From: an uncultured Enterobacterales bacterium
GTDB taxonomy: Bacteria; Myxococcota_A; UBA796; CAJQPC01
Direction of reading: 5' to 3'
Length of the DNA stretch: 64,000 nucleotides
Assembly: GCA_964610645.1 (NCBI GenBank)
Contig: CAZSZE010000012.1
Coordinates: forward strand, 5,095-69,094
The notes beneath the pieces were generated by a model, which was not told the origin of the DNA, did no database searches, and was given only the letters and a program-made list of their open reading frames with translations. Position numbers and translations under genes: made by a program. This document shows positions 6,504-33,211 of this stretch, one piece after another (position 1 is the stretch's first letter; every line of letters begins with the position of its first letter).

Positions 6504-6510
6504 GGAGGGG

Positions 6511-10512: not shown

Positions 10513-10601
10513 GGGTGCCTCCAGAGGTCCAGTTTAACCGGTGCTTCCCTGGAGACGCAGGCCGAATGCGATAGGCTCGACTCCAAGGACAAGGAGACGC
10601 C

Positions 10602-12050: not shown

Positions 12051-12056
12051 GCGGTT

Positions 12057-12167
12057 CTACTCGCAGTACTCGGTCAGCTCGAAATAGGCGCGGCCGTCCG
12101 TGCTGTCGTCCGTGTCGTCCGAGGCGCCGGTGCAGGCCGCCAGAAGCAGGCCAACCGCGGTGATCAC
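12057..12167 (-). CDS. Possible 36-aa mini-lipoprotein ORF (not in ORF track)
   Basis: The GTG at 12167 overlaps the upstream TGA (GTGA). Translation is VITAVGLLLAACTGASDDTDDSTDGRAYFELTEYCE-stop (TAG at 12057-12059), with a lipobox-like LLAAC. There is no basic n-region and the ORF is very short, so confidence is low. Confidence 0.25.
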   Translation of the reverse strand: MITAVGLLLAACTGASDDTDDSTDGRAYFELTEYCE

Positions 12168-13270
12168 TCTTCGACTTCCGCAAAAACGCAGGCCGTGGCG
12201 GAGAAGTTCAGGGCTGCAACATCAGATTCCGTGAGAAGCTCCCACTCCTGGCTGGTGTAGATCGCGTTCCAGCCCGGTCGGATGTTGGATCCCAGGGCCA
12301 TGATCGCCATGCCGAAATCGTAGAAGGCCGGCACCCAGGCCAGCCCGACCGTCTCACCGCCCAGGCAGGCCCAGCCGAGTCTCGTGTCCCCGGCATCCGG
12401 GCCGGCGGGGGTGGAGTCGTCCATGTAGAGGGTGGGAAACTCCAGGCCCATCTCGAGTCCGGGCTCCGCCTCGAACAACCGGTCCGCAGCCGGCGCTCCC
12501 TCGAGGGAAAAGGAGAGGTCTCCGGTGACTTCCTCGTCCAGAGGTCGATTGGCGATCGGAGAGCCGGTGACGATCTCCAGGAGGGCAAAGGTCGCCATGC
12601 GGGCCCCCGCTGGCAAGGGGGAGGTGCTGTCGTAGGTCCCGCCGAAGGAGAACGACTCCCGCAGGCTGAACACGGTGAGGTCGGCCCCAGCACTTGGAAT
12701 GCTGATGGTCGGGTCGGTTCCCCCAGCGAAGTCCGCCGTCATCACCAACCAGGTGTCCAGGGTGTTCCCGGTGTCGGAGGTGTCCTGGTAGACCAGCAGA
12801 TCGTTGGAGGCGCCCATCACTGTGTCCCCGTCTGACCAATCGTCGCTGCTGTCCACATCGTTGTAGGCCATCAAGAGCACGACAGCCCCGGTTCCGCCGT
12901 CGTCAAAGTCGCCGATCATGCTGTCGTCCAGGGCGGAAATCTCGATTTCAACCGTGTCGCTATCGGCCTCCACTGTGGCCACCTCGCCATTGATTTCCAG
13001 GTCATCGCTGCCCGTCTCGAGGGCGAAGGCCCCGACATTCCAGCCGGACTCTGGGGCAGCATCCAGGCGCACCTCCAGGCTCACGCTGGAGCGATCCGTG
13101 TCGGCGTCTGAGTCAGCGTCCGCATCGGCATCGGCATCCGCATCCGCATCGGCATCCGCATCCGCATCGGTGTCGGCATCGGCTTCACCGGTGTCGTCCG
13201 TGTCGATCTTGCCGTCGGTACAGGAAAGGGGAGCCAAGCCCAGAAAGGCGAGGAGAATCAGGGAACGCAT
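12164..13270 (-). CDS. Acidic lipoprotein with (Asp-Ala)n low-complexity linker; function unknown
   Basis: MRSLILLAFLGLAPLSC is a signal peptide plus lipobox. It is followed by DTDDTGEADADTDADADADADADADADADADSDADTD. A GGAGG Shine-Dalgarno sequence precedes the ATG at 13270. Confidence 0.7.
   Translation of the reverse strand: MRSLILLAFLGLAPLSCTDGKIDTDDTGEADADTDADADADADADADADADADSDADTDRSSVSLEVRLDAAPESGWNVGAFALETGSDDLEINGEVATVEADSDTVEIEISALDDSMIGDFDDGGTGAVVLLMAYNDVDSSDDWSDGDTVMGASNDLLVYQDTSDTGNTLDTWLVMTADFAGGTDPTISIPSAGADLTVFSLRESFSFGGTYDSTSPLPAGARMATFALLEIVTGSPIANRPLDEEVTGDLSFSLEGAPAADRLFEAEPGLEMGLEFPTLYMDDSTPAGPDAGDTRLGWACLGGETVGLAWVPAFYDFGMAIMALGSNIRPGWNAIYTSQEWELLTESDVAALNFSATACVFAEVEE
13121..13186. 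repeat. Hexanucleotide tandem repeat (SGCATC) ~11 units inside the lipoprotein gene
   Basis: Read directly: cgcatc ggcatc ggcatc cgcatc cgcatc ggcatc cgcatc cgcatc ggtgtc ggcatc ggcttc. It encodes the (DA)n tract on the minus strand. Confidence 0.9.
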
Positions 13271-13291
13271 GGTGCCTCCGGTGCCCGGGAC

Positions 13292-14308
13292 CTATAGGGA
13301 ACGGATTATAGCGAGGTTGCCGTCGTAGAGCCGGCGTAGATCGTCGATTCCATATCGGAGCATCACCATGCGGTCGAATCCCATGCCGAACGCAAACCCG
13401 TTCCACTCGGCGGGATCATGTCCGCAGGCGGTGAGCACGTTGGGGTGGACCATGCCGCAGGGGATGACCTCGATCCAGCCCGTGGACTTGCACACGCTGC
13501 ACCCGCTGCCGGTGCAGAAGATGCACTCGATGTCCAGGTCCAGGCCGGGCTCGACAAAGGGGTAGAACGCTGGGCGGAAGCGGGTGGGGACGGTGCGTCC
13601 CATGAGGCGCTCCACCAGTCCTTCCAGGGTGGCCTTGAGGTGGCCCACGGTGACGTTCCGGTCGATGAACAAACCTTCCACCTGGTTGAAACAGGCCAGG
13701 TGCGTGGCATCGATGGTCTCGTTTCGAAAGCACTTGCCGGGGGCGATGATGCGCAGGGGAGGGGCGTGTTTCTCCAAGGTGCGGATCTGCACCGAGCTGG
13801 TGTGGGTCCGGGGTACCTCGCCGGTGGACAGGTAGAAGGTGTCCCAAACATCCCGGGCTGGGTGGTCCGCGGGGATGTTCAGGGCATCGAAGTTGTGCCA
13901 CTCATCCTCGATTTCCGGACCCGAGGCCACCGAGAAGCCCAGTCCGTGGAAGTGGTCGATCACCTCGGCAAGCAGGCGGGTGATGGGGTGCAGCTTCCCC
14001 GCACCCTGGGACTGGGCCGGCAGAGAGGGATCCAACCAGCCCTGGGCCAGGTTGGCATCTGCTTGGGCGCTCTCCAGGCTCTCCTTGCGCGCTGCGAGCT
14101 GGGCCTCGAGGGCATCTCGCAGGGCGTTGACCTGGCTTCCCCAACCGGCCCGCTCCTCGGGGGGAAGAGCACCGGTCTGCTTCAGCAGAGCCTTGACCTC
14201 TCCCTTCTTGCCCAGGTACGCCACCCGGATTCCATCGAGGGACTCCAGGTCCTCGGCGTTGGCCAGCCGGGCCTCAAACTCCGCTTGAATGGTCTCCAGG
14301 GGCTTCAC
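13292..14308 (-). CDS. pheS: Phenylalanine--tRNA ligase alpha subunit
   Basis: The GTG at 14308 (VKPLETIQAEF) overlaps the upstream stop (GTGA). Class II motifs are present: ADHPARDVWDTFY, GKCFRNETIDATH...FNQVEG, GFAFGMGFDRMVML. The longer track ORF (to 14743) overlaps the upstream gene and is over-extended. Confidence 0.9.
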   Translation of the reverse strand: MKPLETIQAEFEARLANAEDLESLDGIRVAYLGKKGEVKALLKQTGALPPEERAGWGSQVNALRDALEAQLAARKESLESAQADANLAQGWLDPSLPAQSQGAGKLHPITRLLAEVIDHFHGLGFSVASGPEIEDEWHNFDALNIPADHPARDVWDTFYLSTGEVPRTHTSSVQIRTLEKHAPPLRIIAPGKCFRNETIDATHLACFNQVEGLFIDRNVTVGHLKATLEGLVERLMGRTVPTRFRPAFYPFVEPGLDLDIECIFCTGSGCSVCKSTGWIEVIPCGMVHPNVLTACGHDPAEWNGFAFGMGFDRMVMLRYGIDDLRRLYDGNLAIIRSL

Positions 14309-15339
14309 TTTTCGCCCAACTCCCGGTCGATGATCTCTTTGAAGGAGGCATAGGGGAGAGCGCCCGACAGGAAGATCCCATTCACGAAGAACGCCGGGGT
14401 CCCGGTGACCCCGGCCTTTGCGCCGGCTTCCATGTCGGCCATGATCTCCTTCACCTGGGGCTCGGGATCCGCCACGCATGCGCGCCATGTCTCCATTTCC
14501 ACTTCTGCATCGAAGGCGTACTTTTCCAGGTCCATGTCCTGCAACGCGCCTTGGTTGGCCATGAGGATGTCGTGCATGGCCCAGTACTTGTCCTGTGCCC
14601 CAGCACAGTTCGCAGCCACGGCAGCGGGGATGGCGCGATCGTGGAATTGCAGGGGGAAGTCCCGAAACACCACCTGGATCTTGCCCTCGTATTCGGCGAG
14701 CAGTTGCTCCATGACCTCGCCGGCCTTGCCGCAGTAGGGGCACTGGTACTCAGCGAATTCAATGATCGTGATCGGAGCATCTGCCGGGCCCTTGGACGGG
14801 TTGCCAGCCCCGTCCATGGGGATGCGCGGCAGCTCCGGGTAGGGGAGGTCGATGTGGACCTTGTGCTTTTCCATCAGCTCTGTCAGCAGCGCCTGGGCCG
14901 CCTCGCCCCGGGATTGTTGCTGCCAGGCATCCGCCAGCTGGGCGCGGACTGCATCCAGGGGTTGGCCGCCAAAGTGCTGGGCGTACTGGGCGTGGAATGC
15001 GACGAGGTCCTCTTCCTTGGGCTCTCCCACCTGCGCTACTACCTGCTTTTCCAACCAGGGGTCGATTTCCATGCCGGCTGCGGCCGCCTCGGCTTCCAGG
15101 ATGGCGTCGATGATGATTCGGTTGGCCGTCTGCTTCATCAGCTCGTGGCGGTTCTGGATGTACTCGATCTCCAGTTGGCTTAGCTCCGCCTCCGCCGCCT
15201 GGCTTAGATCGCCCAGGGTCAGGGTCCCGCCGCTCCAGGTCACGACCGTGTCCGTGGCGGAAGCCTGGGCGGTGGAGGGCAGCCCCAGCACCTCTGTGGG
15301 ATGGGAACAGGCGGCGAGAAAGAGGAGGATCGAGATCAT
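14305..15339 (-). CDS. DsbA-family thiol:disulfide oxidoreductase lipoprotein with N-terminal chaperone-like region
   Basis: MISILLFLAAC is the lipobox. The thioredoxin-fold active site is EYQCPYCGKA. The C-terminal segment GVTGTPAFFVNG is typical of the DsbA/thioredoxin fold. Confidence 0.8.
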   Translation of the reverse strand: MISILLFLAACSHPTEVLGLPSTAQASATDTVVTWSGGTLTLGDLSQAAEAELSQLEIEYIQNRHELMKQTANRIIIDAILEAEAAAAGMEIDPWLEKQVVAQVGEPKEEDLVAFHAQYAQHFGGQPLDAVRAQLADAWQQQSRGEAAQALLTELMEKHKVHIDLPYPELPRIPMDGAGNPSKGPADAPITIIEFAEYQCPYCGKAGEVMEQLLAEYEGKIQVVFRDFPLQFHDRAIPAAVAANCAGAQDKYWAMHDILMANQGALQDMDLEKYAFDAEVEMETWRACVADPEPQVKEIMADMEAGAKAGVTGTPAFFVNGIFLSGALPYASFKEIIDRELGEK

Positions 15340-15416
15340 GGTGCCGCCGGATCTAACACAACGGAGCCCCAGAGAACCGCATCGCCGCGCTATAAAGCTC
15401 CACGGGAGGCCGTCCT

Positions 15417-18400
15417 TTGGCCCAAGTCGAATTCCCCACCCCTGAGACCATTGGTCCCTACCGGGTTCTTCGCCCCATCGCCCGGGGAGGGATGGGGGCG
15501 GTGTTCGAGGCAGAGGATCCCGCCAACGGGGAGCGGGTGGCGGTCAAGCTGCTGACCCACCGGGGTCTCGCCCGGCCGCGGTTTGCGCGAGAGTACAAGG
15601 CCCTGACTCGACTGGATCACAAGAACATCGTGCGGGTCTATCGGTACGGCATGCACGAGGGGAATCCCTACCTGTCCATGGAGTTTCTGGATGGCGATCC
15701 GGTGCAGGTCCACGTGCACCGACAGGGACCGCCCGGTGATGCCACCCGAGGCGAGGAGGTTGTGCGGGTGGGAGTCAACGTGTCCCGCGCCCTGGCCTAC
15801 CTGCATGAGCGCGGCATCGTGCACCGGGACCTGAAGTCCTCCAACATCATGGTGCTGCCAGAGGGGCAGGTAAAGCTGCTCGACTTTGGCACCGCCCGCC
15901 AAATGCAGGGAGAGGAGGAAATCACCCGGCGGGGGGAGTTCGTGGGCACCTTTGCCTATGCCTCTCCCGAGCAGATCACAGGGGAGTCGGTGGATGCAAA
16001 GTCCGACCTGTACTCCCTGGGGGTCCTGCTGTATCGCCTGAGCACCGGCCGCCGGCCCTTCAAGGCGGATTCTCCCCACGAGCTCGCCCGAATGCACGTG
16101 GAGCGACGCCCGGTGCCGCCCCGGAAGCTTGTTCCCATGCTGCCGGAGGCCCTGGACCAGCTGATTTTGCGGCTCCTGGAGAAGGACCCGGCGGACCGCC
16201 CGGAATCCGCCACGGTGGTGGCCGAGTTCCTGGCGAGCCAGCTGGTGGGAATTCCCCAGGCAGAACGCCCCACCCTGGGGCCCTCGCGGCTGGTGGGTCG
16301 CACCAGGCAGTTGGAACAGGTCACGGAGCTCCTTGGGCAGGAGTCCCCGGGCAAGGTGGTGCTGGTGGTGGGAAGCGCGGGGTCCGGACGCTCCCGCATG
16401 ATGCGATCCGTGGTCGCTGGAGCACGACAGAAGGGATGGCGTTGCTACAGCGGGCGGTTTGGCGGGGAGCGCGGACTGGGGGTGTTGTTGGAGGTAGCCG
16501 ACGATGTCCAGCGAACTCTGGGTATTGAGGACGAGACCACCGCGGAGTTCGGGGACGACATTGAAATGGCCACGGGCACGGTCCAGGAGCAGCTTTTTGG
16601 CTACGTGGCCACGAGCCTGATTCGCTGTGCCCAGGATGAGGGCCGCGTGCTGGTGGCCCTCGGAGATCTTCACCGCGCCAGTCCCGTGGCGCTGGATGCG
16701 CTGTCCTACACGAGGCAGCGCTGCAGGGAGGCGGAAGTTCCCGTGTTGTTCCTGGCGACCGCTCCCGATGATTCCGATGCACCGGGCACGGCCATTCGAA
16801 AGCGCTTGCCCGAGGCGGGCCGCGTGGACTTGCAGCCCCTCGAGCCCGAGGAGGTCCAGAAGCTGGTCCAGAGCATGCTCGGGGGGCAGCCCCCTTCCAT
16901 GGAACTGGCCCGGTCCATTCACAAAGTGACCGGTGGGATGCCTGGATTTGTGGGGGAGGTGGTTCGCGCCATGGTCCAGGGGTCGCTTCTTGAGGCCCGC
17001 AAGAATCGGGAGGGGATTGAGTGGGTGGATCGGACCGGGGGAGAGATCGGTATTCCCAGCACGGCCCGGGATGCCATTCGCTTGCGATTGGATGCGTTGC
17101 CTGTGGAGGCGTTGCGCTTGCTGCAGGGTCTTGCCGTGGCCGGCGGAGAAGCGCGAACCAAGGTGCTTGCGCATGCGGTGGAACGACCCCCGGTGGAGGT
17201 GGCCCCAATTCTCCAGGACCTCGTCAGCCGCCGTCTGCTCAACTCCCGGGATGGCGCCCGGGACGAGATCTGGTCCTTTCGAATGGCGTTGACCCGGGAA
17301 CTCCTGATGGAGCGGCTCCGCGACCTGCGGCGCGACGTGTTCCAGCGCCTCCTGGCCCAGGCCATGCGCGGGGAGCCGCCGGGGCCCGCCAAGATCCGCT
17401 TGTTGGCGGAGGCAGGCTGGGCAGATGAAGCCATTGCGGAGACGGTGGAGTGGGCCGTGCCGCTGTTGGAATGGGATCGGGCGGAGGAGGTGGCGCCGGT
17501 TTTGGCGACAGCCGTGGCAGCTGTCCCCTCGGTCAAGAAGCCGGATCGCGAGACCCTGGCGCGCCTCTACCTGGCGTCTGCCAGGTGTCGCCTGGTTTCC
17601 CATCCGGGAGATCCGGAAGCAAAGCTGTCCATCGAGCGGGCCTATGCCTTGGCACCCACGGAGATGCTTCGTGGCGAAATCAACATGCACCATGCCCGCC
17701 TGCAAGTGGCCCAGGGGGACTTGGATGGTGCCTGGGACCTCCTGGAGAAAGCCCGCACCAGGGTGGCCCGGGCGCCGGCGCTGCTCAAGGCTGAGGTGGG
17801 GATGAACCTGGGCCGGGTGCAGTGGTACCGAGGTCACTTTGACGAGGCCATGCACTGGTTTGAGGCGGGCCTGGAGAACGCCAGGCGCCATGGCCAGGGG
17901 CGGTACATTGCCCGGGCCCTGCTGGGCCGGGGGGTGGTCCACCTTGCCAAGGGAGAGATGCGGGCGGCTGAGACCGACCTTAGGGAAGCCGCCCTGCTCT
18001 ACGAACAAGCAGGGGACCGGGAGGGGTTGTGGCATGCCCAGGCCAATCTCTGCGATCTGTTGCGGCACAAGGCTGCCTTCGCTGAGGGAGTGCACCTCTT
18101 GGCCGAGGAGCTTCCTGCCGTGCGAGAGGGTGCCTCAGCCTTCCGGTATGCGCTGATGCTCCTGAACCTGGCGGAGTTGGAGGTGGAGATGATTCGCCTC
18201 GGCCGGGCCCGTCAGCGGGTGGAGCGTGTGGAAACCGAGTTGGATCTGGGGGAGCACCTGCACCTGCGGGCAGGGTTGGGCCTCGTGAAGGCGAAGATCG
18301 CCCTGGCCAGCGGAGATCACGCGGAAGCCCACTCTCTTCTGGATCTCCTGGTGGGGGAGGCCGAGGATGCAGACCTGCGGATCATCTCCTCCCAGCTGCG

Positions 18401-18806
18401 GGTCTATCGAGGGGAGGCCCGTGTGAACCTCGGAAGAATGGAGCAGGGGGCCGATGACCTGGCCCTGGGGATCCAGGAGCTCCAGGAGGAGGGCCACATG
18501 CCAGTGCTGGGGGAAGCCTGTGCAGCCCGGGCCCGAGCACTTTCCGGGCGGGAAGACCCGGACCTCTCGTTTGGCCCGGTGTTGCAATGGATGTTTGACG
18601 AGCCGGTCTATGCGCTGCGAATGGAGTACCTCCTGGCCAGCGCTCGCTACGCCGAGTCCCTCGGCAGTTCAAACCGTGCCTTCCAGTTCTTCAAGGAAGC
18701 AGAAGGCCTGCTCCAGGAGATCCACCGAGTCATGAAGCCCGCGGATCAAGCAGCCATGTCCATCCACCCCTGGGCCACAGCGATTCGGCGGGGGTTGGGG
18801 CAGTAG
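15417..18806 (+). CDS. Ser/Thr protein kinase fused to AAA/STAND-like ATPase and TPR-like repeats
   Basis: The TTG at 15417 follows a GGGAGG Shine-Dalgarno sequence. Kinase motifs: GGMGAVF, VAVK, HRDLKSSN, DFG, SPE. A Walker A-like GSAGSGRS is present, and the long helical C-terminus has TPR-like periodicity. Confidence 0.85.
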   Translation: MAQVEFPTPETIGPYRVLRPIARGGMGAVFEAEDPANGERVAVKLLTHRGLARPRFAREYKALTRLDHKNIVRVYRYGMHEGNPYLSMEFLDGDPVQVHVHRQGPPGDATRGEEVVRVGVNVSRALAYLHERGIVHRDLKSSNIMVLPEGQVKLLDFGTARQMQGEEEITRRGEFVGTFAYASPEQITGESVDAKSDLYSLGVLLYRLSTGRRPFKADSPHELARMHVERRPVPPRKLVPMLPEALDQLILRLLEKDPADRPESATVVAEFLASQLVGIPQAERPTLGPSRLVGRTRQLEQVTELLGQESPGKVVLVVGSAGSGRSRMMRSVVAGARQKGWRCYSGRFGGERGLGVLLEVADDVQRTLGIEDETTAEFGDDIEMATGTVQEQLFGYVATSLIRCAQDEGRVLVALGDLHRASPVALDALSYTRQRCREAEVPVLFLATAPDDSDAPGTAIRKRLPEAGRVDLQPLEPEEVQKLVQSMLGGQPPSMELARSIHKVTGGMPGFVGEVVRAMVQGSLLEARKNREGIEWVDRTGGEIGIPSTARDAIRLRLDALPVEALRLLQGLAVAGGEARTKVLAHAVERPPVEVAPILQDLVSRRLLNSRDGARDEIWSFRMALTRELLMERLRDLRRDVFQRLLAQAMRGEPPGPAKIRLLAEAGWADEAIAETVEWAVPLLEWDRAEEVAPVLATAVAAVPSVKKPDRETLARLYLASARCRLVSHPGDPEAKLSIERAYALAPTEMLRGEINMHHARLQVAQGDLDGAWDLLEKARTRVARAPALLKAEVGMNLGRVQWYRGHFDEAMHWFEAGLENARRHGQGRYIARALLGRGVVHLAKGEMRAAETDLREAALLYEQAGDREGLWHAQANLCDLLRHKAAFAEGVHLLAEELPAVREGASAFRYALMLLNLAELEVEMIRLGRARQRVERVETELDLGEHLHLRAGLGLVKAKIALASGDHAEAHSLLDLLVGEAEDADLRIISSQLRVYRGEARVNLGRMEQGADDLALGIQELQEEGHMPVLGEACAARARALSGREDPDLSFGPVLQWMFDEPVYALRMEYLLASARYAESLGSSNRAFQFFKEAEGLLQEIHRVMKPADQAAMSIHPWATAIRRGLGQ

Positions 18807-19008
18807 GGAACCGGCTGCCCAGGTGGCCGTGAAGTGAGGCGTGCGAAATCACACAAGTTCCTGTGATATGCGGGGCCTTGGCGTTGTTTGGCGGTGGTAT
18901 GATCCCTACTACCGCATAGGGAAGACAGGGAGGTCCGGAAACCCCTCCCCTCATGGGCCAGGGGACCGTCGGGCCTGGGGACGAACGCAGGAATCTGGGA
19001 GGCGATTG

Positions 19009-20529
19009 ATGGGAACCGAGTTCGGGGACCTGAGCACGGGCACACCCCACTACTCGGATAACTGGGCCGAAATGAAGGCCTACGTGAGTTTCACCGAGGA
19101 GGACTCACAGAGGCTCGCGGAGGTCCTCCCACTGCTGCGCCCTCACTTCAGGCAGCTGGTGGGGCACTTCTACGAGGTGATCGCAGAGTTTCCAGGGGCA
19201 AGGAGCGTCTTGAAGGACGATTCGCAGGTGGAGCGGCTTCAAAAGACGCTTCTGAATTGGTTGGTCGAGCTCTTTGAGGGACCCCATGACCTGTCCTATT
19301 TCGAGAGCAGGCGGCGAATCGGAGAGGTGCATGTAAGGGTCGGGTTGGAAGAGAGGTACATGTTTACGGCGATGAGCGTCATTCGCAGTGACCTTCTCGA
19401 TGTGGTCGCGGAGGTTTGTTCATCGGAAAAGACGGGCGAGATCAGCCGGTCCATTCTTCGAATCACGGATCTGGATCTTGCGGCCATGACAACTTCCTAC
19501 CGGGAGACACGAGAGCTGGCCCGTCTACAGGCATTGCACTCGGAGGTGGTCCAGAATCTTCCCGCGGGTGTGATTTGCATGGATCGAGCTGGGATCGTCA
19601 CCGCGGTGACAGAGATGACCAGGTTGATCTTGGGAGTGGACGTTGAGGTCGGTGACCAGGCTTTGGAAGTGCTTCCGACAGGGCTGTTCGGTGGAACATC
19701 GCTGGCACAGCTTCTCGAAGAGGTAATCCCTTTGGGGGTCCCCAAGCACATTGGTGGCGTGACCCTGGGCACAGGACAGGAAAGACGGACACTGCGCCTG
19801 AACGTTGTGCCCATGTTCCACGGCCTGTCGGACCTCATGATCAAGGTAGAAGACATCACGGAGGAGACCCGCGCCGAGCTGGAGGCCCGTCAGTCCAAAT
19901 CCCTCGCCCAGATTGGTGCGCTCACGGCCAATCTCGCCCATGAGATTCGAAATCCTCTCGCCGGTATCTCTTCCACGGTGCAGGTGGTGATGGGGGGGTT
20001 GGCGGAGAGTGATCGGCGGCGAAGAGCGCTGGCGCTTGTCACAGAACAGGTCGCCCGGTTGGATCACCTCGTGACCGATCTGCTCCTCTTTGGTCGCGCA
20101 ACGACGCCGCGTTGTGAGCGCACCGACTTGGGTGCTCTTGTTCTTGAGGTCATCAACGACAGGGGTTTCAATTCCGATTTCTTGGAGCGGGGCACAGCTT
20201 TGGCTTGGGCGGATCCGGACTGCGTGTGCCAGGTGCTCGTGAATCTCCTGCAGAACGCACTGGCAGCAGCAGGTCCGGGAGGCAGGGTCCTGGTCCGGGT
20301 AGGCCCGGGCCCGCAATTGGAGGTGCTGGACGATGGGCCCGGCGTGGAGGCGTCCGTACGGGAGACTCTCTTCGGTGCTTTTGTCACCACCAAGGCCAGG
20401 GGTACGGGCCTGGGTCTTGCAATCAGTCGCCAGATTTCGGAAGCGATGTCGGGAACCCTTGTCCTGGTGGAGGCGCCTGAGGATTCCCTTGGGGGGGCCT
20501 GTTTTCGCCTCAGCTTTCCTTCTGCTTGA
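19009..20529 (+). CDS. Globin-coupled sensor histidine kinase (sensor globin - PAS-like - HisKA - HATPase)
   Basis: The ATG at 19009 follows a GGGAGG Shine-Dalgarno sequence. The N-terminal sensor-globin/protoglobin signature has FTEEDSQRL, GHFYEVI (distal Tyr context) and RRIGEVHVRVGL (proximal His context). The H-box is LAHEIRNPLAGI. The ATPase domain has G-boxes (DDGPGV, GTGLGLAI). Confidence 0.8.
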   Translation: MGTEFGDLSTGTPHYSDNWAEMKAYVSFTEEDSQRLAEVLPLLRPHFRQLVGHFYEVIAEFPGARSVLKDDSQVERLQKTLLNWLVELFEGPHDLSYFESRRRIGEVHVRVGLEERYMFTAMSVIRSDLLDVVAEVCSSEKTGEISRSILRITDLDLAAMTTSYRETRELARLQALHSEVVQNLPAGVICMDRAGIVTAVTEMTRLILGVDVEVGDQALEVLPTGLFGGTSLAQLLEEVIPLGVPKHIGGVTLGTGQERRTLRLNVVPMFHGLSDLMIKVEDITEETRAELEARQSKSLAQIGALTANLAHEIRNPLAGISSTVQVVMGGLAESDRRRRALALVTEQVARLDHLVTDLLLFGRATTPRCERTDLGALVLEVINDRGFNSDFLERGTALAWADPDCVCQVLVNLLQNALAAAGPGGRVLVRVGPGPQLEVLDDGPGVEASVRETLFGAFVTTKARGTGLGLAISRQISEAMSGTLVLVEAPEDSLGGACFRLSFPSA

Positions 20530-21901
20530 TCTGGATTCCGTGCTTCTCGAGGCGGTAGCGTAGGGCGTAGCGGCTGATGTCAAGCAGCTTGGCGGCTTGC
20601 ACTTGGTTGCCCTGGGTGCGGGCCAGGGCTTGTTCCAGAAGTTGGCGCTCAACCTCCTCCAGGCTCGCCCCCGCCTCCCCCAGGACCAGCAGATTTTCGG
20701 GAACCGCTTCCCCCGGCTTGGGGTTGTGCGCCCTGGCCTCCTTGGGAAGGTGTGCGACCTCAATTGTCTCGTCTGCCTCAAGGATAATGGCACGCTCGAT
20801 CACGTTTCGAAGCTCCCGCACGTTTCCGGGCCATGGGTAGCTACACATCAGGTCCATTGCTTCCACACTGACACCGGTGATTTCCCGGCGATATTCCCTG
20901 TTGAATTGCCGCACGAAGTGATCCACGAGAAGTGGGATGTCGGTTCTACGCTCTCGAAGAGGAGGCACGACCAACTCCACGACGTTCAGCCGGTAGAAGA
21001 GGTCCTGGCGAAATGTCTTCTTCTGTACCTCTTCTGCCAGGTTTCGGTTTGTGGCCGCGATCACGCATGCGTCCATCTTGATGTCGTGGACGCTTCCCAC
21101 TCGTCTAAACCGCCGATTTTCCATGATTCGAAGGAGCTTGGCCTGCACCCCGATGCCCAACTCCCCGATCTCATCGAGAAAGAGCGTTCCGCCCTTGGCG
21201 ATCTCGAAGAGACCGGGCTTGGCAGTCCTTGCATCCGTGAAGGCACCTCGCTCGTGACCAAACAGCTCCGATTCGATCAGGGTCTCGGGCAGGGCAGCAC
21301 AGTCTACCTCCACATAGAGCCCATCCGATCGGGTGCCCGAGTCATGAATGGCCTTGGCGAGAAGGTCCTTTCCGGTTCCCGTTTCTCCTTGAATCAGGAT
21401 GGCTGGGGGATCCACGTCCTTCAATCGCTCGACGAGGGAGAGGACCCTCCGAATGCCGGCGGATTCTCCGATAATGCGTCCATAGTGGCGCTCGGCGCTC
21501 TTCTTGAGGTATCGAACTTCTAGTTGCAGGCGATGGCTCTTCAGCGCCTTCTCCACGGCGAACTCCACTTCCCGAAGATCGAAGGGCTTGCTCAGGTAGG
21601 CGTGGGCGCCCAGGCGGGTGGCCTCGATGGCTGACTCAATGGCCTCGAAGGCCGTGAGGACAATGACCGGCAGGGTGCTCTCTGTCTCTCGCAGGTGGCG
21701 CAGCACATCCAGTCCGCCCATCTGTGGCATTCGCAAGTCGGTGATCAAGAGGTCTGGTGAGACCGACGTGATCTGTTCAAGGCACTCCTTTCCGTTCTCC
21801 GCTTCGAAGATGCGATAGCCCAGGCCCTCCATGTGCTCCCGAAGCGCCCACCGGATGAGCGGTTCATCGTCACAGATGAGAATGTTGACGGGAACTTCCA
21901 T
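20510..21901 (-). CDS. Sigma-54-dependent response regulator (NtrC family enhancer-binding protein)
   Basis: Probable start is MEVPVNILICDDEP (21901). It has a receiver domain, an AAA+ core with Walker A GETGTGKD and the sigma-54 contact loop GAFTDA (a GAFTGA variant), and a C-terminal Fis-type HTH (AAKLLDISRYALRYRL). The 3' end overlaps the kinase gene by 20 nt (convergent). Confidence 0.9.
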   Translation of the reverse strand: MEVPVNILICDDEPLIRWALREHMEGLGYRIFEAENGKECLEQITSVSPDLLITDLRMPQMGGLDVLRHLRETESTLPVIVLTAFEAIESAIEATRLGAHAYLSKPFDLREVEFAVEKALKSHRLQLEVRYLKKSAERHYGRIIGESAGIRRVLSLVERLKDVDPPAILIQGETGTGKDLLAKAIHDSGTRSDGLYVEVDCAALPETLIESELFGHERGAFTDARTAKPGLFEIAKGGTLFLDEIGELGIGVQAKLLRIMENRRFRRVGSVHDIKMDACVIAATNRNLAEEVQKKTFRQDLFYRLNVVELVVPPLRERRTDIPLLVDHFVRQFNREYRREITGVSVEAMDLMCSYPWPGNVRELRNVIERAIILEADETIEVAHLPKEARAHNPKPGEAVPENLLVLGEAGASLEEVERQLLEQALARTQGNQVQAAKLLDISRYALRYRLEKHGIQIKQKES

Positions 21902-22033
21902 GGGCTGGCATCCTCTCCATTCGCTCTGGAAAAGCCATTTTTCCCAGTCAATCGCTTGCAAGCGCCATGCCGGCTGAATGAAGGCGCCGAGGGGAAGCGT
22001 ACGGCGATCGGGAATGTTCGCCTATTCTGTTGT

Positions 22034-22068
22034 GGGTGTTTTCGCACATTGTTGCCCGGTGAACACCC
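22034..22068. promoter_or_regulatory. Inverted repeat GGGTGTT-N21-AACACCC, candidate activator (UAS) site
   Basis: Perfect 7-nt arms at 22034-22040 and 22062-22068, about 75-110 nt upstream of the -24/-12 element. There is no binding-site model to test against. Confidence 0.2.
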
Positions 22069-22141
22069 TGTTTGGGGGGGGCGAAAGTGCAGGGCAGCGG
22101 CGGATCTTCGGCTGGGCGGGTGGTTGCTCGGGGCCTTGGGT

Positions 22142-22157
22142 TGGCACGCAATGTGCA
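22142..22157 (+). promoter_or_regulatory. Sigma-54 (-24/-12) promoter candidate
   Basis: TGGCACGCAATGTGCA matches the TGGCACG-N4-TTGCW consensus with one mismatch and correct GG/GC spacing. It lies ~100 nt upstream of the boxB-like ATG (22255) and divergent from the sigma-54 activator gene. Confidence 0.55.
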
Positions 22158-22254
22158 CACTTTGACCAAGGCGTTGCTGGGTGTGTCAGAGGTGTTCCCG
22201 TGTGGTTCCCTTGAAGGACACGTGCGGGCCGCAGACCTGGGAGAAGAAGTGGCA

Positions 22255-23664
22255 ATGGACTATGGGGCAACTGTCCCGAACAATGTGGGGCTCGCGAGCG
22301 ACCGGAAGCTACTGCGGGCGCTGGCCGCTTGGCAGCCCAAGTTCCGGGACTGGTGGGCAGATGTTGGCCCCCAGGGGTTCGACCAGGAGGAGGTGTACCT
22401 GCGCACGGCCGTTTCGACGGAGCCGGGTGGGTGGTCGCGCTTTGGGTTTGTGCAGATACCGGAGTATCGCTGGGGCATCTTCCTCGCGGACCCGATCGTG
22501 GATCGCAAGGTCCCCTGTGGGGATGATGCCGGGGAGAGGGCCTGGCAGGAGGTGCCGGGAGATCGGCGGAGCCTGTTGCAGAGCTTGATCGTGACGCAGG
22601 CGGACACGGAGCCGGCGTCGGTGGAGCAACAGCGGGCGCTTGGAAGTACCGCCCCAAGTCTGTACGACGCCCGAAACCTGCTGCAGGTAAATGTGGAAGA
22701 AGGCCGACACCTGTGGGCGATGGTGTACCTGCTCCATCGCTACTTTGGTAGAGATGGCCGGGACCAGGCGGATGACTTGTTGGTGCGGCGAGCAGGGGAT
22801 GCGGACTGTCCCCGAATCCTCGAGGCATTCAACCAACCGTGCGAGGACTGGCTGAGTTTCTTCTGTTTCACCTGTTTCACGGATCGGGATGGCAAGTACC
22901 AGCTGGGAGCCCTGGCGGAGTCCGGGTTTGATCCCCTTTCCCGGACCTGCCGCTTCATGCTCACCGAGGAGGCTCATCACCTGTTTGTGGGAGAACGGGG
23001 CTTGGAGAGAATCCTGCGCAGATCCGTGCAGTTGACTCGAGAGGATCCCAACGGGGACGCCAGGGGACAAGGTGGGATTGACCTCCCCACGCTTCAGAAG
23101 TACTGCAACTTCTGGTTTGCCTATTGTTTGGATCTCTTTGGTTCTGAGGAGAGCTCAAACGCGGCGCAGGCCTTCTCCATGGGGCTCAAGGGGCGGTGGA
23201 AGGAGAACCATCTTGAGGGAGATCATGTCTGTACCCACGGGGAGGTCTCCTTGCCGATGGTTCAGGACGGGGTGCTGGTCCACAAGGATGTGCCTCTTCG
23301 CCGCGCCATGAACGAGCTGCTTCGGGTGGAGTACATCAAGGACTGCCAGCGCGTGGTGGAACGTTGGAACCGGGCTCTTCAAGGAGAGGGAAGCGACTTT
23401 CGGATCAGCCTCCCCAATCACCGGTTCTTTCGACGAAAAGGACTGTACTCCGGGCACAAGTTTGACCCGGAGGGGAGGCTTGTTTCAGAGGCGGAGTGGT
23501 TGAAGCAGCAAGACGATTGGCTGCCCACTGCGTCGGATCGACGCTATGTCCAATCCTTGATGCAACCCTGCCTGGAGCCGGGAGAGATGGCCCATTGGAT
23601 CTGCGCGCCCACCCGTGGAATCAATGGGCGGCCGGTGCATTTCGAGTATCTGCGGGCGTGTTGA
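22255..23664 (+). CDS. boxB: Benzoyl-CoA 2,3-epoxidase (oxygenase) component B-like di-iron protein
   Basis: The ATG at 22255 starts MDYGATVPNNVGL. It shows extended similarity to BoxB as I recall it (WQP.F..WW, YLRTAVS, YRWGIFLA, IVTQADTEPASVEQQR, APSLYD.RNL.QVNVEEGRHLWAMVYLL, FMLTEEAHH, INGRPV.FEY). Di-iron E..H motifs are present. Confidence 0.85.
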   Translation: MDYGATVPNNVGLASDRKLLRALAAWQPKFRDWWADVGPQGFDQEEVYLRTAVSTEPGGWSRFGFVQIPEYRWGIFLADPIVDRKVPCGDDAGERAWQEVPGDRRSLLQSLIVTQADTEPASVEQQRALGSTAPSLYDARNLLQVNVEEGRHLWAMVYLLHRYFGRDGRDQADDLLVRRAGDADCPRILEAFNQPCEDWLSFFCFTCFTDRDGKYQLGALAESGFDPLSRTCRFMLTEEAHHLFVGERGLERILRRSVQLTREDPNGDARGQGGIDLPTLQKYCNFWFAYCLDLFGSEESSNAAQAFSMGLKGRWKENHLEGDHVCTHGEVSLPMVQDGVLVHKDVPLRRAMNELLRVEYIKDCQRVVERWNRALQGEGSDFRISLPNHRFFRRKGLYSGHKFDPEGRLVSEAEWLKQQDDWLPTASDRRYVQSLMQPCLEPGEMAHWICAPTRGINGRPVHFEYLRAC

Positions 23665-23775
23665 AGCGTAGCGACGAAGACGGAGTCTAAAGAGGCGAGC
23701 CGTCCTCGGGAGGCACCCGCAGCTCTTTGGCACTTCACTGCACGCCTGGCACCGGAACAGCGGCGGTAGGTTGCG

Positions 23776-27238: not shown

Positions 27239-27936
27239 GGAAGTGCCGGAGACTCGAATTCCACGAAACCGGGTGCTTCGTCGAGGCGCTGCCTACAGGC
27301 CCAGGCGCCCCCGAGCAGGCCGAGGACATAGAGAACGGTGAGAAGGACTCTCATGGGAATCTCGCCCAGGCGCCTGGAGAATCGAAGCCAACTCTCCCAT
27401 GCACGCCGCAGCCGAGCACGTCGGATCCACCGATCTGCCTCCTTGGGTGAGCCCACGATGGCGAGGAGGAGCTTGTGGGTGAGGCCTACGTGCCCGAGTT
27501 CGTCCTTTTTTGCTTCAAGGAAGACGCTCCTTGCCGGACAGTCTCCTATTCCTGCTGCGTAGGAGTTGAACTGGTCAAAGACGTCCTTCTCCCCGACGTG
27601 GGCGTGGGCAAGAAACGCTGGTGCGGCATCCTCTCCCTTCAACGGGTCCAGGATGGGATCTCTGTGGAGGAGCGGTTTGGGTGGGTGGGAGGCCTCGTAC
27701 TGGCTGGCAACCCGATCAAACTCGCTGGCGTGGTGGAGCTCTTCGAGGGTGTGCTGGAGAACGAGGGCTCGAGTAGGGGGGTCGTCGATCTGCTCCAGGG
27801 CGTGCAGCAGCTGCCAGGCGCTGTCCGCTTCCATGACTGAAAAGTACTTGAGCCGCGATGCCATTCTCCCGGAGAACGGTCTCCAGGTCAGTGGAACCAG
27901 AACCCTTGTCAGCAGGTTTCGCGGCCAATTCGTCAT
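27235..27936 (-). CDS. Ferritin-like (putative di-iron carboxylate) protein with C-terminal TM anchor
   Basis: Two E...ExxH-type pairs are present (MEADSAW / LEELHH and GEKDVF / KDELGH) in predicted helices. The C-terminus has a hydrophobic helix (VLLTVLYVLGLLGGAWA). The ATG at 27936 overlaps the cytochrome c stop (ATGA). Confidence 0.5.
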   Translation of the reverse strand: MTNWPRNLLTRVLVPLTWRPFSGRMASRLKYFSVMEADSAWQLLHALEQIDDPPTRALVLQHTLEELHHASEFDRVASQYEASHPPKPLLHRDPILDPLKGEDAAPAFLAHAHVGEKDVFDQFNSYAAGIGDCPARSVFLEAKKDELGHVGLTHKLLLAIVGSPKEADRWIRRARLRRAWESWLRFSRRLGEIPMRVLLTVLYVLGLLGGAWACRQRLDEAPGFVEFESPALP

Positions 27937-28958
27937 GGCACCTCGGCAGCGTTCTCCACGGGAAGGGGAGCCGTGATCTGGCCTGTGTCCGCTTCTACCA
28001 GTGCCTTGCGCTGGGCAGCCTCGGGCGTTCCCTTCAGCGCGGTGAGAGAGCCGACATAGTGGGCGATCGCCCAGATTTCCTTGGACTCCAGCGTCTCAGA
28101 CCAGGCCGGCATGGCGGTTCCGGGAATGCCAATTCCAATCACCTGGGCCAGGGAGGCGTTGTCTCTCGCTCGCCTGAGCGGGCGATAGGTGAAGTCCGGT
28201 GGCACGATCATGAGTGGCTGCTCGCAGCGGCCATACCGGCAGACCTGGTCCTCACCGGTACAGTCCCGGTTGGTTTCACAGGCGGGATCGCCAGGGATCG
28301 GGCTGCTGTAGGACTTGCTTTCCTTGGCCTTTGAGCGCCACCTGTTGGGCCGAAAGTCGGTCTTGAATGACAAGCCAAGCTCCTGCCGGTCGGCGTTGGT
28401 GGCCTCGCGCGTCTGGAAGGCGGGGTGGCATGTGGAGCACTCAGCCACGCTGTGGTAGAGCGTTTCGCCCCTCTCAATGGCTGCCTTGTCGTCCGTCCAG
28501 GGGTCTTCTCCCGGACTGTAGGGGGCACTCACCTCTGAGTCCGGGTCGCGCCATCCGTCTCCTTCTGGGGAGAACGTCTTGATGTACTGAATCAGCGGCT
28601 CGAGCATCTGGTCCGGAAGCTCCCATTCCAGCATCGCGGTTCCATGCAAGCCTCCGCGTATCAGGAGCCCAAGGGACTCATCCGTTGGCAAGTACTCAGT
28701 GGAGGTCCCAGTGAACTTGTAGGTCGCGGTTCGCAGGTCGCGGGGGGGCGGCGTGAGGTCCGCGGAGGAGAGGCCTCGACCGTCCCCGTCCGTGCCGTGG
28801 CACGAGATGCAGTAGTAGGAGTACGCCGACTCTCCCGCATTGAGGGTGTCCGCGGAGACGGAGATACCTCCCAGGACCTGGGGCTCGGTGAAGGCGGGCT
28901 CGCAGCCCAACAATGGGGCAAGGACGAGCAGGGAGAGGGCGTGGAATTTGGGGGTCAA
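27933..28958 (-). CDS. Dihaem c-type cytochrome lipoprotein
   Basis: The TTG at 28958 follows a GGAGAAG Shine-Dalgarno sequence and gives (M)TPKFHALSLLVLAPLLGC (lipobox). Haem motifs are CISCHG and CSTCHP, with a Met-ligand context GTAMPAW. The track ORF to 29234 is over-extended. Confidence 0.75.
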   Translation of the reverse strand: MTPKFHALSLLVLAPLLGCEPAFTEPQVLGGISVSADTLNAGESAYSYYCISCHGTDGDGRGLSSADLTPPPRDLRTATYKFTGTSTEYLPTDESLGLLIRGGLHGTAMLEWELPDQMLEPLIQYIKTFSPEGDGWRDPDSEVSAPYSPGEDPWTDDKAAIERGETLYHSVAECSTCHPAFQTREATNADRQELGLSFKTDFRPNRWRSKAKESKSYSSPIPGDPACETNRDCTGEDQVCRYGRCEQPLMIVPPDFTYRPLRRARDNASLAQVIGIGIPGTAMPAWSETLESKEIWAIAHYVGSLTALKGTPEAAQRKALVEADTGQITAPLPVENAAEVP

Positions 28959-29200
28959 AGGACTTCTCCACGAATTGAACTCGATAGGGGCATGGGGGAA
29001 GTGTTCGCTTGATGGGCATGATGAAGCCACCTCAAGAACACTCCCAGGATCAGGATTGGAAGGCCCAGCATCAGGGCGGTTGCGGTGAGGTACGCCATCG
29101 CTTCGTCTCCCCCGAAGATCCCGGCACAATTGGGGCACGCGTCTGCTGTGCCACTTGCCAGGCCCGAGAGGAGCAGCATGAAGGCGATTCGGCTTACCAC
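28955..29200 (-). CDS. Small membrane protein with CPNC motif (unknown; oxidase-operon encoded)
   Basis: 81 aa with a signal-like N-terminus, then ADACPNCAG, then one TM helix (TATALMLGLPILILGVFL) and an HHAH patch. Its stop overlaps the downstream TTG (TTGA) and its start overlaps the upstream gene by 7 nt. Confidence 0.4.
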   Translation of the reverse strand: MVSRIAFMLLLSGLASGTADACPNCAGIFGGDEAMAYLTATALMLGLPILILGVFLRWLHHAHQANTSPMPLSSSIRGEVL

Positions 29201-29784
29201 AGGTACACCAGGCCGTAGAGGGGGGGCCAGACAAGCACCACGAAGGTCCAGTACATTCGCCCGGCTCTAAGGCGATCCATTGATTGGGTGGATCCGGGGT
29301 CCCGGAGGGTCAGCTGGTGGATGCGTGCGAACACAACCAGGGCCACGATCACGTGCAACCCGTGACAGCCCACGAGGGAATAGAACAGGGCGCCGTAGAG
29401 GCTGGAAGATGAGGTGAGTCCGTGCTGGATCAGGCGCCCCCACTCAATGCCCTGAAACACCACAAAGACGGTGCCAAGGGCCAGCGCTGCTCCCCGCAGG
29501 GACCGGGCGATGTTGTGGTTGCCCCGGGCGGATTCGGAGACGCTGCGCCAGAGAGCGCCTCCACTGGCGATAAGAATCGCCGTGTTGATGGCGGTGGCAA
29601 AGACCGGTAGGCGCGGTTGGTCGAGGGGTGGCCAGAGACCTGCTTGGGACCGCAGCACCACGTAGGCGCTGGCCAGGCCACAGAAGAGCATGGCCTCAGA
29701 GATCAGAAACAGTGCGCACCCGAGGACGATGTTGGGAATCGCCGGAGACGGTCGGGTGGGGCGCACCTGTGCTGCTGCGGTCAT
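29194..29784 (-). CDS. Haem-copper oxidase subunit III family protein (second copy)
   Basis: Start is MTAAAQV (29784), with an ATGA overlap with the subunit IV gene. It is polytopic. FQGIEW and GCHGLHVIVAL motifs parallel subunit III. The track ORF to 29973 is over-extended. Confidence 0.7.
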   Translation of the reverse strand: MTAAAQVRPTRPSPAIPNIVLGCALFLISEAMLFCGLASAYVVLRSQAGLWPPLDQPRLPVFATAINTAILIASGGALWRSVSESARGNHNIARSLRGAALALGTVFVVFQGIEWGRLIQHGLTSSSSLYGALFYSLVGCHGLHVIVALVVFARIHQLTLRDPGSTQSMDRLRAGRMYWTFVVLVWPPLYGLVYLW

Positions 29785-30074
29785 TGGACGGGCTCTGCCC
29801 CAAAGACCCAGGCGATGTCCGGAATGAGGCCCACATAGAGCACCATCAGGGCCAACAGGCAGCCGACAATCAGCACCTTGATGGCTCGTTGCTCCAGGGT
29901 CACGTGCATGAAGCGGGAAGCCACAAGCCACGCCTTGAAGAGGGCGATCAAGAAGACAAAGGCAATGGCCCACTGGCTCCCGGAGACAGCTGTGGCCACC
30001 AGCGAGATGCCGAAGGCAACCGACAGCACTATCCAGACCCGGACGTAGTTCGTGGGGGGGTGAGAGTCACTCAT
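29781..30074 (-). CDS. Cytochrome c oxidase subunit IV (prokaryotic type)
   Basis: 97 aa with three hydrophobic helices. The signature IALFKAWLVASRFMHV matches the prokaryotic COX4 family motif (KA.LV...FMH). Confidence 0.7.
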   Translation of the reverse strand: MSDSHPPTNYVRVWIVLSVAFGISLVATAVSGSQWAIAFVFLIALFKAWLVASRFMHVTLEQRAIKVLIVGCLLALMVLYVGLIPDIAWVFGAEPVQ

Positions 30075-30081
30075 GGAAACC

Positions 30082-30651: not shown

Positions 30652-30657
30652 GGCTGC

Positions 30658-33071: not shown

Positions 33072-33211
33072 GAGCGAACTCTCCCGTTTCGCGAATTCGA
33101 TTGGGCTAAACGCAATGGTCGTGCCAACTCGGTTGGACGGTAGAAGGCGGGTTTCGGAGCGCTTCCTTCCTGTGGGTGTCCGACAGGGGAGGGCGTACGT
33201 GCCCATCGTTG

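Follow-up and report, generated by a model that had tools for sequence, protein, structure and literature searches.

A candidate oxygen-response circuit linking a globin-coupled sensor kinase, a sigma-54 activator and a solo boxB gene in uncultured Myxococcota

The DNA described here is a 64,000-nucleotide stretch of contig CAZSZE010000012.1 (hereafter the window), in which the genes for a globin-coupled sensor kinase and a sigma-54 activator lie beside boxB, the gene for the di-iron oxygenase component of benzoyl-CoA 2,3-epoxidase. An earlier interpretation made from the letters alone (the sequence-only reading) had proposed that the haem kinase acts through the activator on the boxB gene. 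The features of the locus, in which promoters and dyads were scored with position weight matrices (PWMs), are as follows.

19009-20529, plus strand: sensor kinase of 506 amino acids (aa), a soluble globin-PAS-histidine kinase (Pfam domains and conserved residues)
20510-21901, minus strand: NtrC-type sigma-54 enhancer-binding response regulator (Response_reg, Sigma54_activat, AAA_lid_14 and HTH_8; Pfam, NCBIfam)
21957-21972, minus strand: predicted sigma-54 promoter facing the activator gene, CGGCATGGCGCTTGCA (17.2 bits, top in the window)
22033-22048: candidate enhancer (upstream activating sequence) dyad TGGGTGTTTTCGCACA, conserved (17.0 bits)
22142-22157, plus strand: predicted sigma-54 -24/-12 promoter of boxB, TGGCACGCAATGTGCA (one mismatch to TGGCAC-N5-TTGCW; 15.6 bits, rank 2)
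22255-23664, plus strand: BoxB, di-iron oxygenase component of benzoyl-CoA 2,3-epoxidase (TIGR03225 equivalog)

First, the domains of the kinase were examined. The N-terminus matched Protoglobin (PF11563, E=3.2e-32) and the transmitter matched both HisKA (PF00512) and HATPase_c (PF02518), in each case over the Pfam cut-off. The sensor globin spans residues 18-168 and is followed by a PAS-like region (about 169-290), the phospho-acceptor H311 and HATPase_c; in homologues, PAS_4 (PF08448) is annotated in the region of about 120 residues between the globin and the DHp helix. The globin matched the sequence of the AfGcHK structure (PDB 5OHE) with E=1.5e-24 and that of GsGCS (2W31) with E~1e-24. 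Y55 and H108 aligned on the distal Tyr45 and the proximal His99 of AfGcHK, and they stand in the FY (F54/Y55) and RIGEVH (H108) contexts which the sequence-only reading had rightly taken as sensor-globin hallmarks. Furthermore, F54, Y55, H108 and H311 were invariant in an alignment of 24 full-length kinase homologues, and the H-box motif AHEIRNPL, which contains H311, was invariant among the aligned homologues. The best NCBIfam model for the transmitter was AtoS (169.7 bits), far under the equivalog cut-off. These results suggest that the kinase binds haem via the sensor-globin domain, with His108 as the proximal and Tyr55 as the distal residue. In AfGcHK, His99 is the haem ligand and Tyr45 recognises O2, and the kinase is on with O2 bound and off in the deoxy form (PMC8697598).

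The assignment of the neighbouring regulator to the NtrC type, with GAFTDA as its sigma-54 contact loop, was also confirmed: the product carries a receiver (PF00072), the sigma-54 activator domain (PF00158, E=1.3e-63), AAA_lid_14 and HTH_8 (PF02954). The best NCBIfam model was AtoC (449.5 bits), again far under the equivalog cut-off. D55 and K105 were invariant in nine orthologues, and the recognition helices of HTH_8 were conserved family-wide. The regulator does adjoin the kinase, as the earlier interpretation had said, although the two genes are convergent and do not form an operon; their 3' ends overlap by 20 nucleotides (nt; 20510-20529). A convergent 3' overlap was also observed in L004 (2449-2468), L086 and L121, and it reached about 60 nt in relatives. 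Such convergent transcription could itself be regulatory.

Many full-length globin-(PAS)-kinase proteins, 39-48% identical to the query, were retrieved in a search with the kinase; the named ones were mostly labelled as Myxococcota metagenome-assembled genomes. A sigma-54 activator gene stood tail to tail with the kinase gene, often overlapping it, in 14 of the 15 lineages examined; the exception was L122, where no activator was present within 7 kb of the kinase. The activators of the 14 lineages were 55-79% identical to that of the window, and kinase identity went down to 39%. Since the tail-to-tail arrangement is stable across such divergence, there is good evidence that the kinase and the activator are a cognate pair despite their separate transcription. 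Gene calling in the GC-rich relative loci was partly manual. A profile scan of genome contigs with the kinase alignment was also tried and set aside, as it returned mostly unrelated kinases via generic motifs and only L006 and L007 were useful.

Subsequently, the 353-nt intergenic region between the activator gene and boxB (21902-22254) was analysed for promoters. A promoter PWM was built from 22 promoters of other loci only and used to scan the window (about 128,000 positions). The top three sites were all intergenic and correctly oriented, and comprised the two promoters of this region and a third one:

33111-33126, minus strand: predicted sigma-54 promoter ahead of coxII, TGGCACGACCATTGCG, about 40 nt before the coxII start codon (13.0 bits, rank 3)

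The next matches scored at most 11.5 bits and lay inside called open reading frames (ORFs). The near-consensus boxB promoter at 22142-22157 had already been pointed out in the sequence-only reading, together with the suggestion to score it in this manner, and its second rank agrees with that assignment. Indeed, the element was kept as TGGCACACAACGTGCA in L001, TGGCACGTCTTGTGCA in L004 and TGGCACATCCTGTGCA in L089, while the flanking sequence diverges. The predicted boxB transcript would start near 22168 and have a leader of about 87 nt, the fold of which was no more stable than that of shuffled sequences (z = 0.29). The promoter facing the activator gene corresponds to TGGCATGGCGTTTGCA in L001 and has equivalents in L007 and L123; L004 carries TGGTATGCCTCTTGCG at the same relative place, which was read by eye and is unscored. 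Since a sigma-54 promoter faces the activator gene, autoregulation is implied, as in the Nmp system of Myxococcus xanthus described below. Upstream of the sensor kinase gene, the scan gave no sigma-54 promoter (best PWM score in 18800-19020, 1.5).

We then considered where the activator might bind. In the sequence-only reading, a 7-nt inverted repeat (GGGTGTT at 22034-22040 and AACACCC at 22062-22068) had been noted upstream of the boxB promoter. The repeat is present in the window but absent from L001 and L004, and was rejected as the enhancer; it is the overlapping dyad at 22033-22048 that is conserved instead, as TGGGCGATTTGGCACA in L001 and TGTGCGATATTGCACA in L004/L089. The dyad centre lies 103 nt from the -24 GG of boxB in the window (L001, 92 nt; L004, 90 nt) and about 70 nt from the divergent promoter. 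Distances of 90-104 nt are typical of sigma-54 enhancers. When all 4-mer dyads with spacers of 2-12 nt were enumerated without bias in 16 upstream regions and compared with 300 shuffles, TGTG-N8-CACA was the top dyad, present in 7 of the 16 regions against a shuffle mean of 0.04. TGTG-N10-CACA was present in 4 of 16 (shuffle mean, 0.08), and no dyad was present in more than 4 regions of any shuffle. Similar dyads were observed upstream of sigma-54 promoters in L006, L007, L086, L087, L088, L120, L121, L123 and L124. Furthermore, a dyad PWM trained on loci other than the window gave three window matches of at least 17 bits, all of them intergenic, while the third-best match in shuffles averaged 11.3 bits. 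A further dyad lies upstream of the cox promoter:

33221-33236: dyad TGTGGGGTTTGGCCCA (read on the minus strand), centred 104 nt upstream of the cox -24 GG (13.6 bits)

Its spacing of 104 nt, compared with 103 nt at boxB, indicates the same geometry in the window; the dyad distances at boxB and cox (90-104 nt) differ by about one helical turn. In simple pattern counts, the promoter was not enriched in the window (2 matches against 2.1 expected) and the dyad was not above chance; the significance of both thus comes only from their conservation and from the PWMs trained on other loci. Taken together, these findings suggest that the TG[T/G]G-N8-CACA dyad is a likely enhancer, which we assign to this activator by inference.

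The form of this dyad, however, admits another explanation, namely that another enhancer-binding protein acts at the boxB promoter, or that the dyad is bound by a Crp/Fnr factor, and that the kinase and activator control other genes. In its outer bases the dyad is similar to a CRP-type site (TGTGA-N6-TCACA), and the pair often has crp/fnr genes nearby, so that the dyad could belong to another factor. Moreover, there is just one dyad at boxB, the kinase and regulator genes are not operonic, and myxobacteria encode dozens of NtrC-like activators (PMC11841059). On the other hand, the dyad half-sites are TGTGC/GCACA and not TGTGA/TCACA, the spacing fits a sigma-54 enhancer, and the same dyad stands beside sigma-54 promoters with no crp in the fetched flanks in loci that include the window, L006, L007, L087, L120 and L121. 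The divergent activator-boxB layout, with promoter and dyad, was also kept in the three lineages that have the boxB upstream region. Hence we regard control of boxB by another factor as improbable, and assignment of the dyad to the paired activator is preferred.

The best dyad match in the window lies upstream of the sensor kinase, behind a second kinase gene:

15417-18806, plus strand: Ser/Thr protein kinase of 1129 aa with Pkinase and AAA_16/TPR (NCBIfam), directly upstream of the sensor kinase
18840-18855: dyad CGTGCGAAATCACACA, some 155 nt ahead of the kinase start (17.9 bits, the highest dyad PWM score in the window)

This dyad, which sits between the Ser/Thr kinase and sensor kinase genes, might be a candidate activator-binding site with a repressive or a sigma-70-linked autoregulatory role. 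A Ser/Thr kinase gene directly upstream of the sensor kinase was also observed in L001 (co-directional) and in L086 and L118 (divergent), and its product may be a conserved second signalling input to the sensor kinase.

The gene neighbourhoods of the pair were compared across the family.

Window, L001/L002 (kinase 75% identical) and L003-L005/L089 (kinase 62% identical): boxB, divergent from the activator
L086, L088, L124 and the P0033 locus: crp/fnr-family gene, divergent from the activator
L087 and L120: ccoNOQP-ccoI-ccoS (cbb3 oxidase) operon that ends with the activator gene
L123: aa3-type oxidase operon, divergent from the activator
L123: CBS-hemN-CBS-kinase operon
L088, L120, L122, L124 and the P0033 locus: usp genes near the pair
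L006 and L121: acetyl-CoA hydrolase/transferase genes near the pair

Sigma-54 promoters flanked the pair in every family locus with enough flanking DNA to scan. They preceded crp/fnr in L086, L088 and L124, ccoN in L087 and L120, usp in L088, L120, L122 and L124, the CBS-hemN-kinase genes in L123 and the CoA-transferase genes in L006 and L121. No intergenic sigma-54 match was found in the short loci L118/L119, and none was found upstream of the aa3 (cox) operon of L123. In L122, a family kinase (43% identity) stands beside a ccoI-ccoS-radical-SAM-boxB operon (10316-15437), of which the radical-SAM protein is TrsS/Tes-like; a PCMT-GspE-like fusion gene follows this operon. It was also observed that a gene for a hemerythrin-radical-SAM fusion (591 aa) lies at 1148-2923 of L003, just upstream of the 62%-identical kinase, an arrangement that recalls the HemN-hemerythrin operon of the NmpR regulon.

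From these neighbourhoods, the genes around the pair look like an oxygen regulon to which boxB is a lineage-specific addition, being a target in one clade only. The control of boxB by the haem kinase through the sigma-54 activator, as first proposed from the letters alone, is well supported by the synteny and by the conservation of promoter and enhancer; across the family, however, the genes next to the pair are mainly oxidases, crp/fnr, usp and hemN. The same gene classes constitute the experimentally defined "oxygen utilisation regulon" of NmpR in M. xanthus (PMC11841059), and it is mainly because of this match that the signal is read as oxygen. The same wiring could instead report NO, CO or the redox state of the haem. 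Sensor globins bind O2, NO and CO alike, AfGcHK is also active in its Fe(III) and Fe(II)-CO forms (PMC8697598), the NarGH encoded in the window makes nitrogen oxides physiologically relevant, and ligand selectivity is not assignable from sequence alone. Against this, the distal Tyr, which stabilises O2 in AfGcHK, is invariant in the family, the neighbours are overwhelmingly O2-related (cbb3/aa3 oxidases, hemN), and no NO-detoxifying genes were seen beside the pair. A signal other than O2 thus appears rather unlikely to us, and O2 is retained as the most likely ligand.

Next, the product of the gene at 22255-23664 was analysed. It scored 699.9 bits with TIGR03225, 200 bits over the cut-off of 499.1, and 595 bits against the BoxB structure of A. 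evansii (3PER). Hence, the gene that had been called boxB-like is by sequence a full boxB, and benzoyl-CoA epoxidation is predicted for its product; it belongs, however, to a clade that lacks boxC. We recovered 29 metagenomic BoxB loci at 57-77% identity, of which four were left out of the boxC count (the close relatives L089 and L090, the 5'-truncated L116, and L104, which does carry boxC). In 22 of the remaining 25, boxC (TIGR03222, over cut-off) was located immediately upstream of boxB, and the sensor pair was absent from all 25. In a UPGMA (unweighted pair group method with arithmetic mean) clustering on identities, which is a crude method, the BoxBs of the window, L001, L089 and L122 clustered together. 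In these four loci, boxC was absent near boxB, and we refer to them as the "solo" clade. The BoxB of L122 is 67.5% identical to that of the window; since so distant a relative has a solo-clade BoxB in an operon with oxidase genes, the link between BoxB and the oxygen regulon would be older than the window lineage.

The solo proteins showed no functional divergence at positions that are invariant in canonical BoxBs. E120, E150, H153, D211, E240 and H243 (3PER numbering), which we take, after Rather et al. 2011, to be the di-iron ligands, are all conserved. Of the 159 columns invariant in 20 canonical BoxBs, 140 were identical in all four solo proteins, and the only clade-wide change was the conservative E104D.

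The gene that follows boxB was also compared. In L001, L089 and L090 it encodes a tryptophanase-family (tnaA-like) lyase (NF009709, 609 bits, cut-off 285), and in L001 the start of the lyase gene overlaps the boxB stop by 4 nt. When the L001 lyase was searched against the window with tblastn, the best match lay right after boxB:

23710-23754, plus strand: possible tryptophanase-family remnant, the last ~15 codons, EAPAALWHFTARLAP (tblastn with the L001 lyase)

This match had 11 of 15 identities to the C-terminus of the lyase, with an overall E=0.052. Since an intact lyase gene is missing in the window and a C-terminal match is located directly after boxB, the match is interpreted as a deletion scar, and the window lineage seems to have deleted about 1.3 kb of the lyase gene. 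No link between BoxB and tryptophanase was found in the literature.

Such a setting raises the question of what a solo BoxB does. It may serve not benzoate catabolism but another substrate, or the consumption or handling of O2, with the tryptophanase-family lyase as its ancestral partner. The absence of boxC from all four solo loci, compared with its presence in 22 of 25 others, points in this direction, as do the tnaA-like gene after boxB in three relatives, the position of boxB among oxidase and radical-SAM genes in L122, and the presence of a radical-SAM (HemN) and di-iron hemerythrin pair in the NmpR regulon (PMC11841059). In addition, no boxA, boxC or CoA ligase was found among the large ORFs of the 64-kb window, although boxA and boxC may be encoded in another part of the genome. 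The intact ligand positions, the canonical columns and the wide excess over the equivalog cut-off speak against a changed function. Furthermore, the pair of L123 stands beside anaerobic benzoyl-CoA genes, which suggests that benzoyl-CoA metabolism is relevant in these organisms. A role of the solo BoxB outside benzoate catabolism is considered unlikely. In a tentative and rather doubtful proposal, this BoxB clade left the boxABC operon and became fixed in a globin-kinase/sigma-54 oxygen regulon of uncultured Myxococcota, together with cbb3/aa3 oxidases, having ancestrally been co-transcribed with the lyase.

The anaerobic cluster of L123 occupies positions 1-4300; bcrC, oah and had passed the equivalog cut-offs and dch was below its own. 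It is divergent to the sigma-54-driven CBS-hemN-CBS-globin-kinase operon, and a sigma-54-like element was observed 13 nt before the start codon of had. From this locus, benzoyl-CoA metabolism and the sensor may be linked more generally, or the adjacency could be coincidence.

Taken together, we consider a direct two-component, sigma-54-dependent oxygen-response circuit controlling boxB to be the probable explanation, which we hold with somewhat better than even confidence. In this circuit, the cytoplasmic kinase would bind haem in its N-terminal sensor globin. Gas binding, most likely of O2, would be relayed via the PAS-like linker and alter the autophosphorylation of His311, from which the phosphoryl group would be passed to Asp55 of the convergently encoded activator. 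The activator would then assemble on the TG[T/G]G-N8-CACA dyad about 100 bp upstream and use ATP to open the sigma-54 promoters. In the window, these promoters would drive boxB, the activator's own gene and probably the aa3-type oxidase operon, and the corresponding pairs of other family members would act on cbb3 oxidase, crp/fnr, usp and hemN genes. On this model, boxB would have been recruited in this clade into a respiratory and oxygen-utilisation regulon, which would couple the O2-requiring dearomatisation of benzoyl-CoA to oxygen availability. Haem binding, the O2 signal, its polarity, the phosphotransfer and the dyad as the activator site are all parts that we infer from the sequence and from homologues.

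Several observations weigh against this circuit. The contact loop of the activator reads GAFTDA and not GAFTGA (G to D at position 5), and is thus non-canonical; since F-T-D-A was invariant in all nine aligned orthologues, however, the loop is regarded as a family trait and not as decay. The kinase and the activator are not co-transcribed. Beside the CRP-like form of the dyad already discussed, boxB has a single copy, whereas two or more are usual for NtrC-like activators, and the cox dyad, at 13.6 bits, is near the best score expected by chance and is weaker when taken alone. rpoN was not found among the large ORFs of the window. The missing BoxA and BoxC partners in the window make the physiological role of BoxB uncertain. 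Finally, the polarity can be argued both ways: hypoxia is the classical inducer of cbb3, hemN and usp, and it is also under hypoxia that NmpR is active (PMC11841059).

As for this polarity, we slightly favour O2-bound as the kinase-on state, that is, an "oxygen present" switch for O2-consuming enzymes, because AfGcHK is on with O2, the wiring appears direct, and the cbb3, aa3 and BoxB targets all consume O2. An "oxygen has appeared" switch would be coherent for a nitrate-respiring facultative anaerobe. The opposite polarity, as in FixL, is nearly as likely.

Other candidate members of the regulon were observed in the window. The genes downstream of the cox promoter are the following.

27933-33071, minus strand: aa3-type (A-family) haem-copper oxidase operon (NCBIfam, Pfam)
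32373-33071: coxII
30658-32373: coxI
30082-30651: coxIII
29194-29973: coxIII-like
27933-29234: multi-haem cytochrome c

This operon is probably a further member of the regulon, in the same manner as boxB. It was also observed that two tandem coxIII-family genes follow coxI (189 and 259 aa; 29194-30651), and that coxIII models align with the 259-aa product from about residue 80 onwards only, which leaves it with an N-terminal extension. A second set of elements was found farther along.

54462-54477, plus strand: dyad TGTGCTAAATCACCCA (dyad PWM 17.2 bits)
54548-54563, plus strand: weak sigma-54-like element TGGAGTGGATCTTGCA (promoter PWM 7.3; 17 window positions score at least 7)

The weak element lies 70 nt after the dyad. 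Downstream, in a gene string leading to 58302-63510, are genes for a SPASM-domain protein, a regulator of GAF-SARP type and a cytochrome c, and the string ends with narG and narH, the products of which both passed the equivalog cut-offs. Tentatively, control by this sensor may extend to nitrate respiration; the sites at cox and nar are weaker than the one at boxB. Elsewhere in the window, large FG-GAP/MopE-repeat proteins are encoded at 48-9161, 33260-34957 and 42450-44474, consistent with a myxobacterial-type genome, and a B12-binding radical-SAM gene adjoins a radical-SAM/SPASM gene at 49527-52129, possibly as a peptide- or cofactor-maturation cassette. The window contained no tRNA genes (ARAGORN) and no Rfam matches.

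The sequence-only reading had considered such a regulon not to have been described, which is too strong a statement: NmpRSTU of M. xanthus (Bretl 2018, PMC6211767; McAllister 2025, PMC11841059) is a globin-kinase-initiated, NtrC-like, sigma-54-dependent oxygen-utilisation regulon and the closest known system. Both have a protoglobin kinase at the start, an NtrC-like sigma-54 activator as the output, autoregulation and a myxobacterial host, and the target classes common to Nmp and the pair family comprise cbb3 oxidase with a P-type ATPase, USP, a CBS protein and HemN. Nmp is, however, a four-protein relay, in which the hybrid kinase NmpS, with NmpT serving as a sink, connects NmpU to NmpR, and the signal is inverted by the relay. 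In contrast, the kinase of the locus has an extra PAS-like domain, an AtoS/ZraS-like transmitter and a direct activator partner. Genes for an NmpS-type hybrid kinase and an NmpT-type double-receiver protein were both absent from the flanks of the pair, in the window as well as in the family loci that were examined. The NmpR site GCGCA-N5-TGCGC had no match with two or fewer mismatches in 21902-22254, and its window-wide count was below chance. boxB is not known as an Nmp target. From these comparisons, the locus appears to be a shorter, direct two-component variant of an NmpRSTU-type oxygen circuit that has an enhancer motif of its own and a target that is new and specific to the clade.

The other known systems share single parts with the locus. 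FixL-FixJ-FixK of rhizobia is a haem-based O2-sensing two-component system that controls a Crp/Fnr-family regulator and cbb3 (fixNOQP), and the gene neighbourhoods of L086, L088 and L124 resemble it. FixL, however, senses through a haem-PAS domain and not a globin, and FixJ is a LuxR-type sigma-70 activator and not a sigma-54 enhancer-binding protein. AtoS/AtoC and ZraS/ZraR, of the NtrB/NtrC class, use the same mechanism, His-to-Asp phosphotransfer followed by AAA+ remodelling of the sigma-54 holoenzyme, whereas the sensor domain, a globin here, and the targets differ. AfGcHK of Anaeromyxobacter sp. Fw109-5 (PDB 5OHE, PMC8697598) is likewise a soluble kinase with a homologous sensor globin. 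There the globin is joined directly to the kinase, with the phospho-His at 183 and no PAS, and the partner is a receiver-only protein; in the kinase of the locus, some 120 PAS-like residues are inserted ahead of the phospho-His, which is at 311, and this kinase is paired with a sigma-54 activator. The box clusters of Aromatoleum/Azoarcus and other Betaproteobacteria contain boxA and boxC and are controlled by the XRE-type, benzoyl-CoA-responsive repressor BoxR (PMC10803450, PMC6449761). They share the BoxB family and low-oxygen aromatic degradation with the locus, but use ordinary promoters; the locus differs from them in having a lone boxB behind a sigma-54 promoter beside a gas-sensor pair. 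Our literature searches yielded no description of box genes controlled by sigma-54 or by a gas sensor.

To our knowledge, studies of globin-coupled histidine kinases have been limited to one lineage (AfGcHK/NmpU), in which a multi-step relay carries the signal to the genome. The present analysis points to a widespread family, represented mainly in uncultured Myxococcota, whose globin-PAS kinases would be coupled to a sigma-54 activator without intermediates. Since its enhancer motif is predicted and its target promoters are clear, this family would offer a compact and testable model for haem-based oxygen control of respiration. The locus is also the first in which a box gene is a candidate for direct control by an oxygen sensor, these genes having so far been known as substrate-regulated via BoxR. 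If the proposed history of the solo BoxB clade is true, the sensor pair may determine whether benzoyl-CoA is dearomatised by the oxygen-sensitive (Bcr) or the oxygen-dependent (Box) route, or the solo BoxB may have a new role in oxygen handling or linked to aromatic amino acids. A direct oxygen input would bear on the choice that facultative anaerobes make between oxygen-sensitive and oxygen-dependent attack on the aromatic ring.

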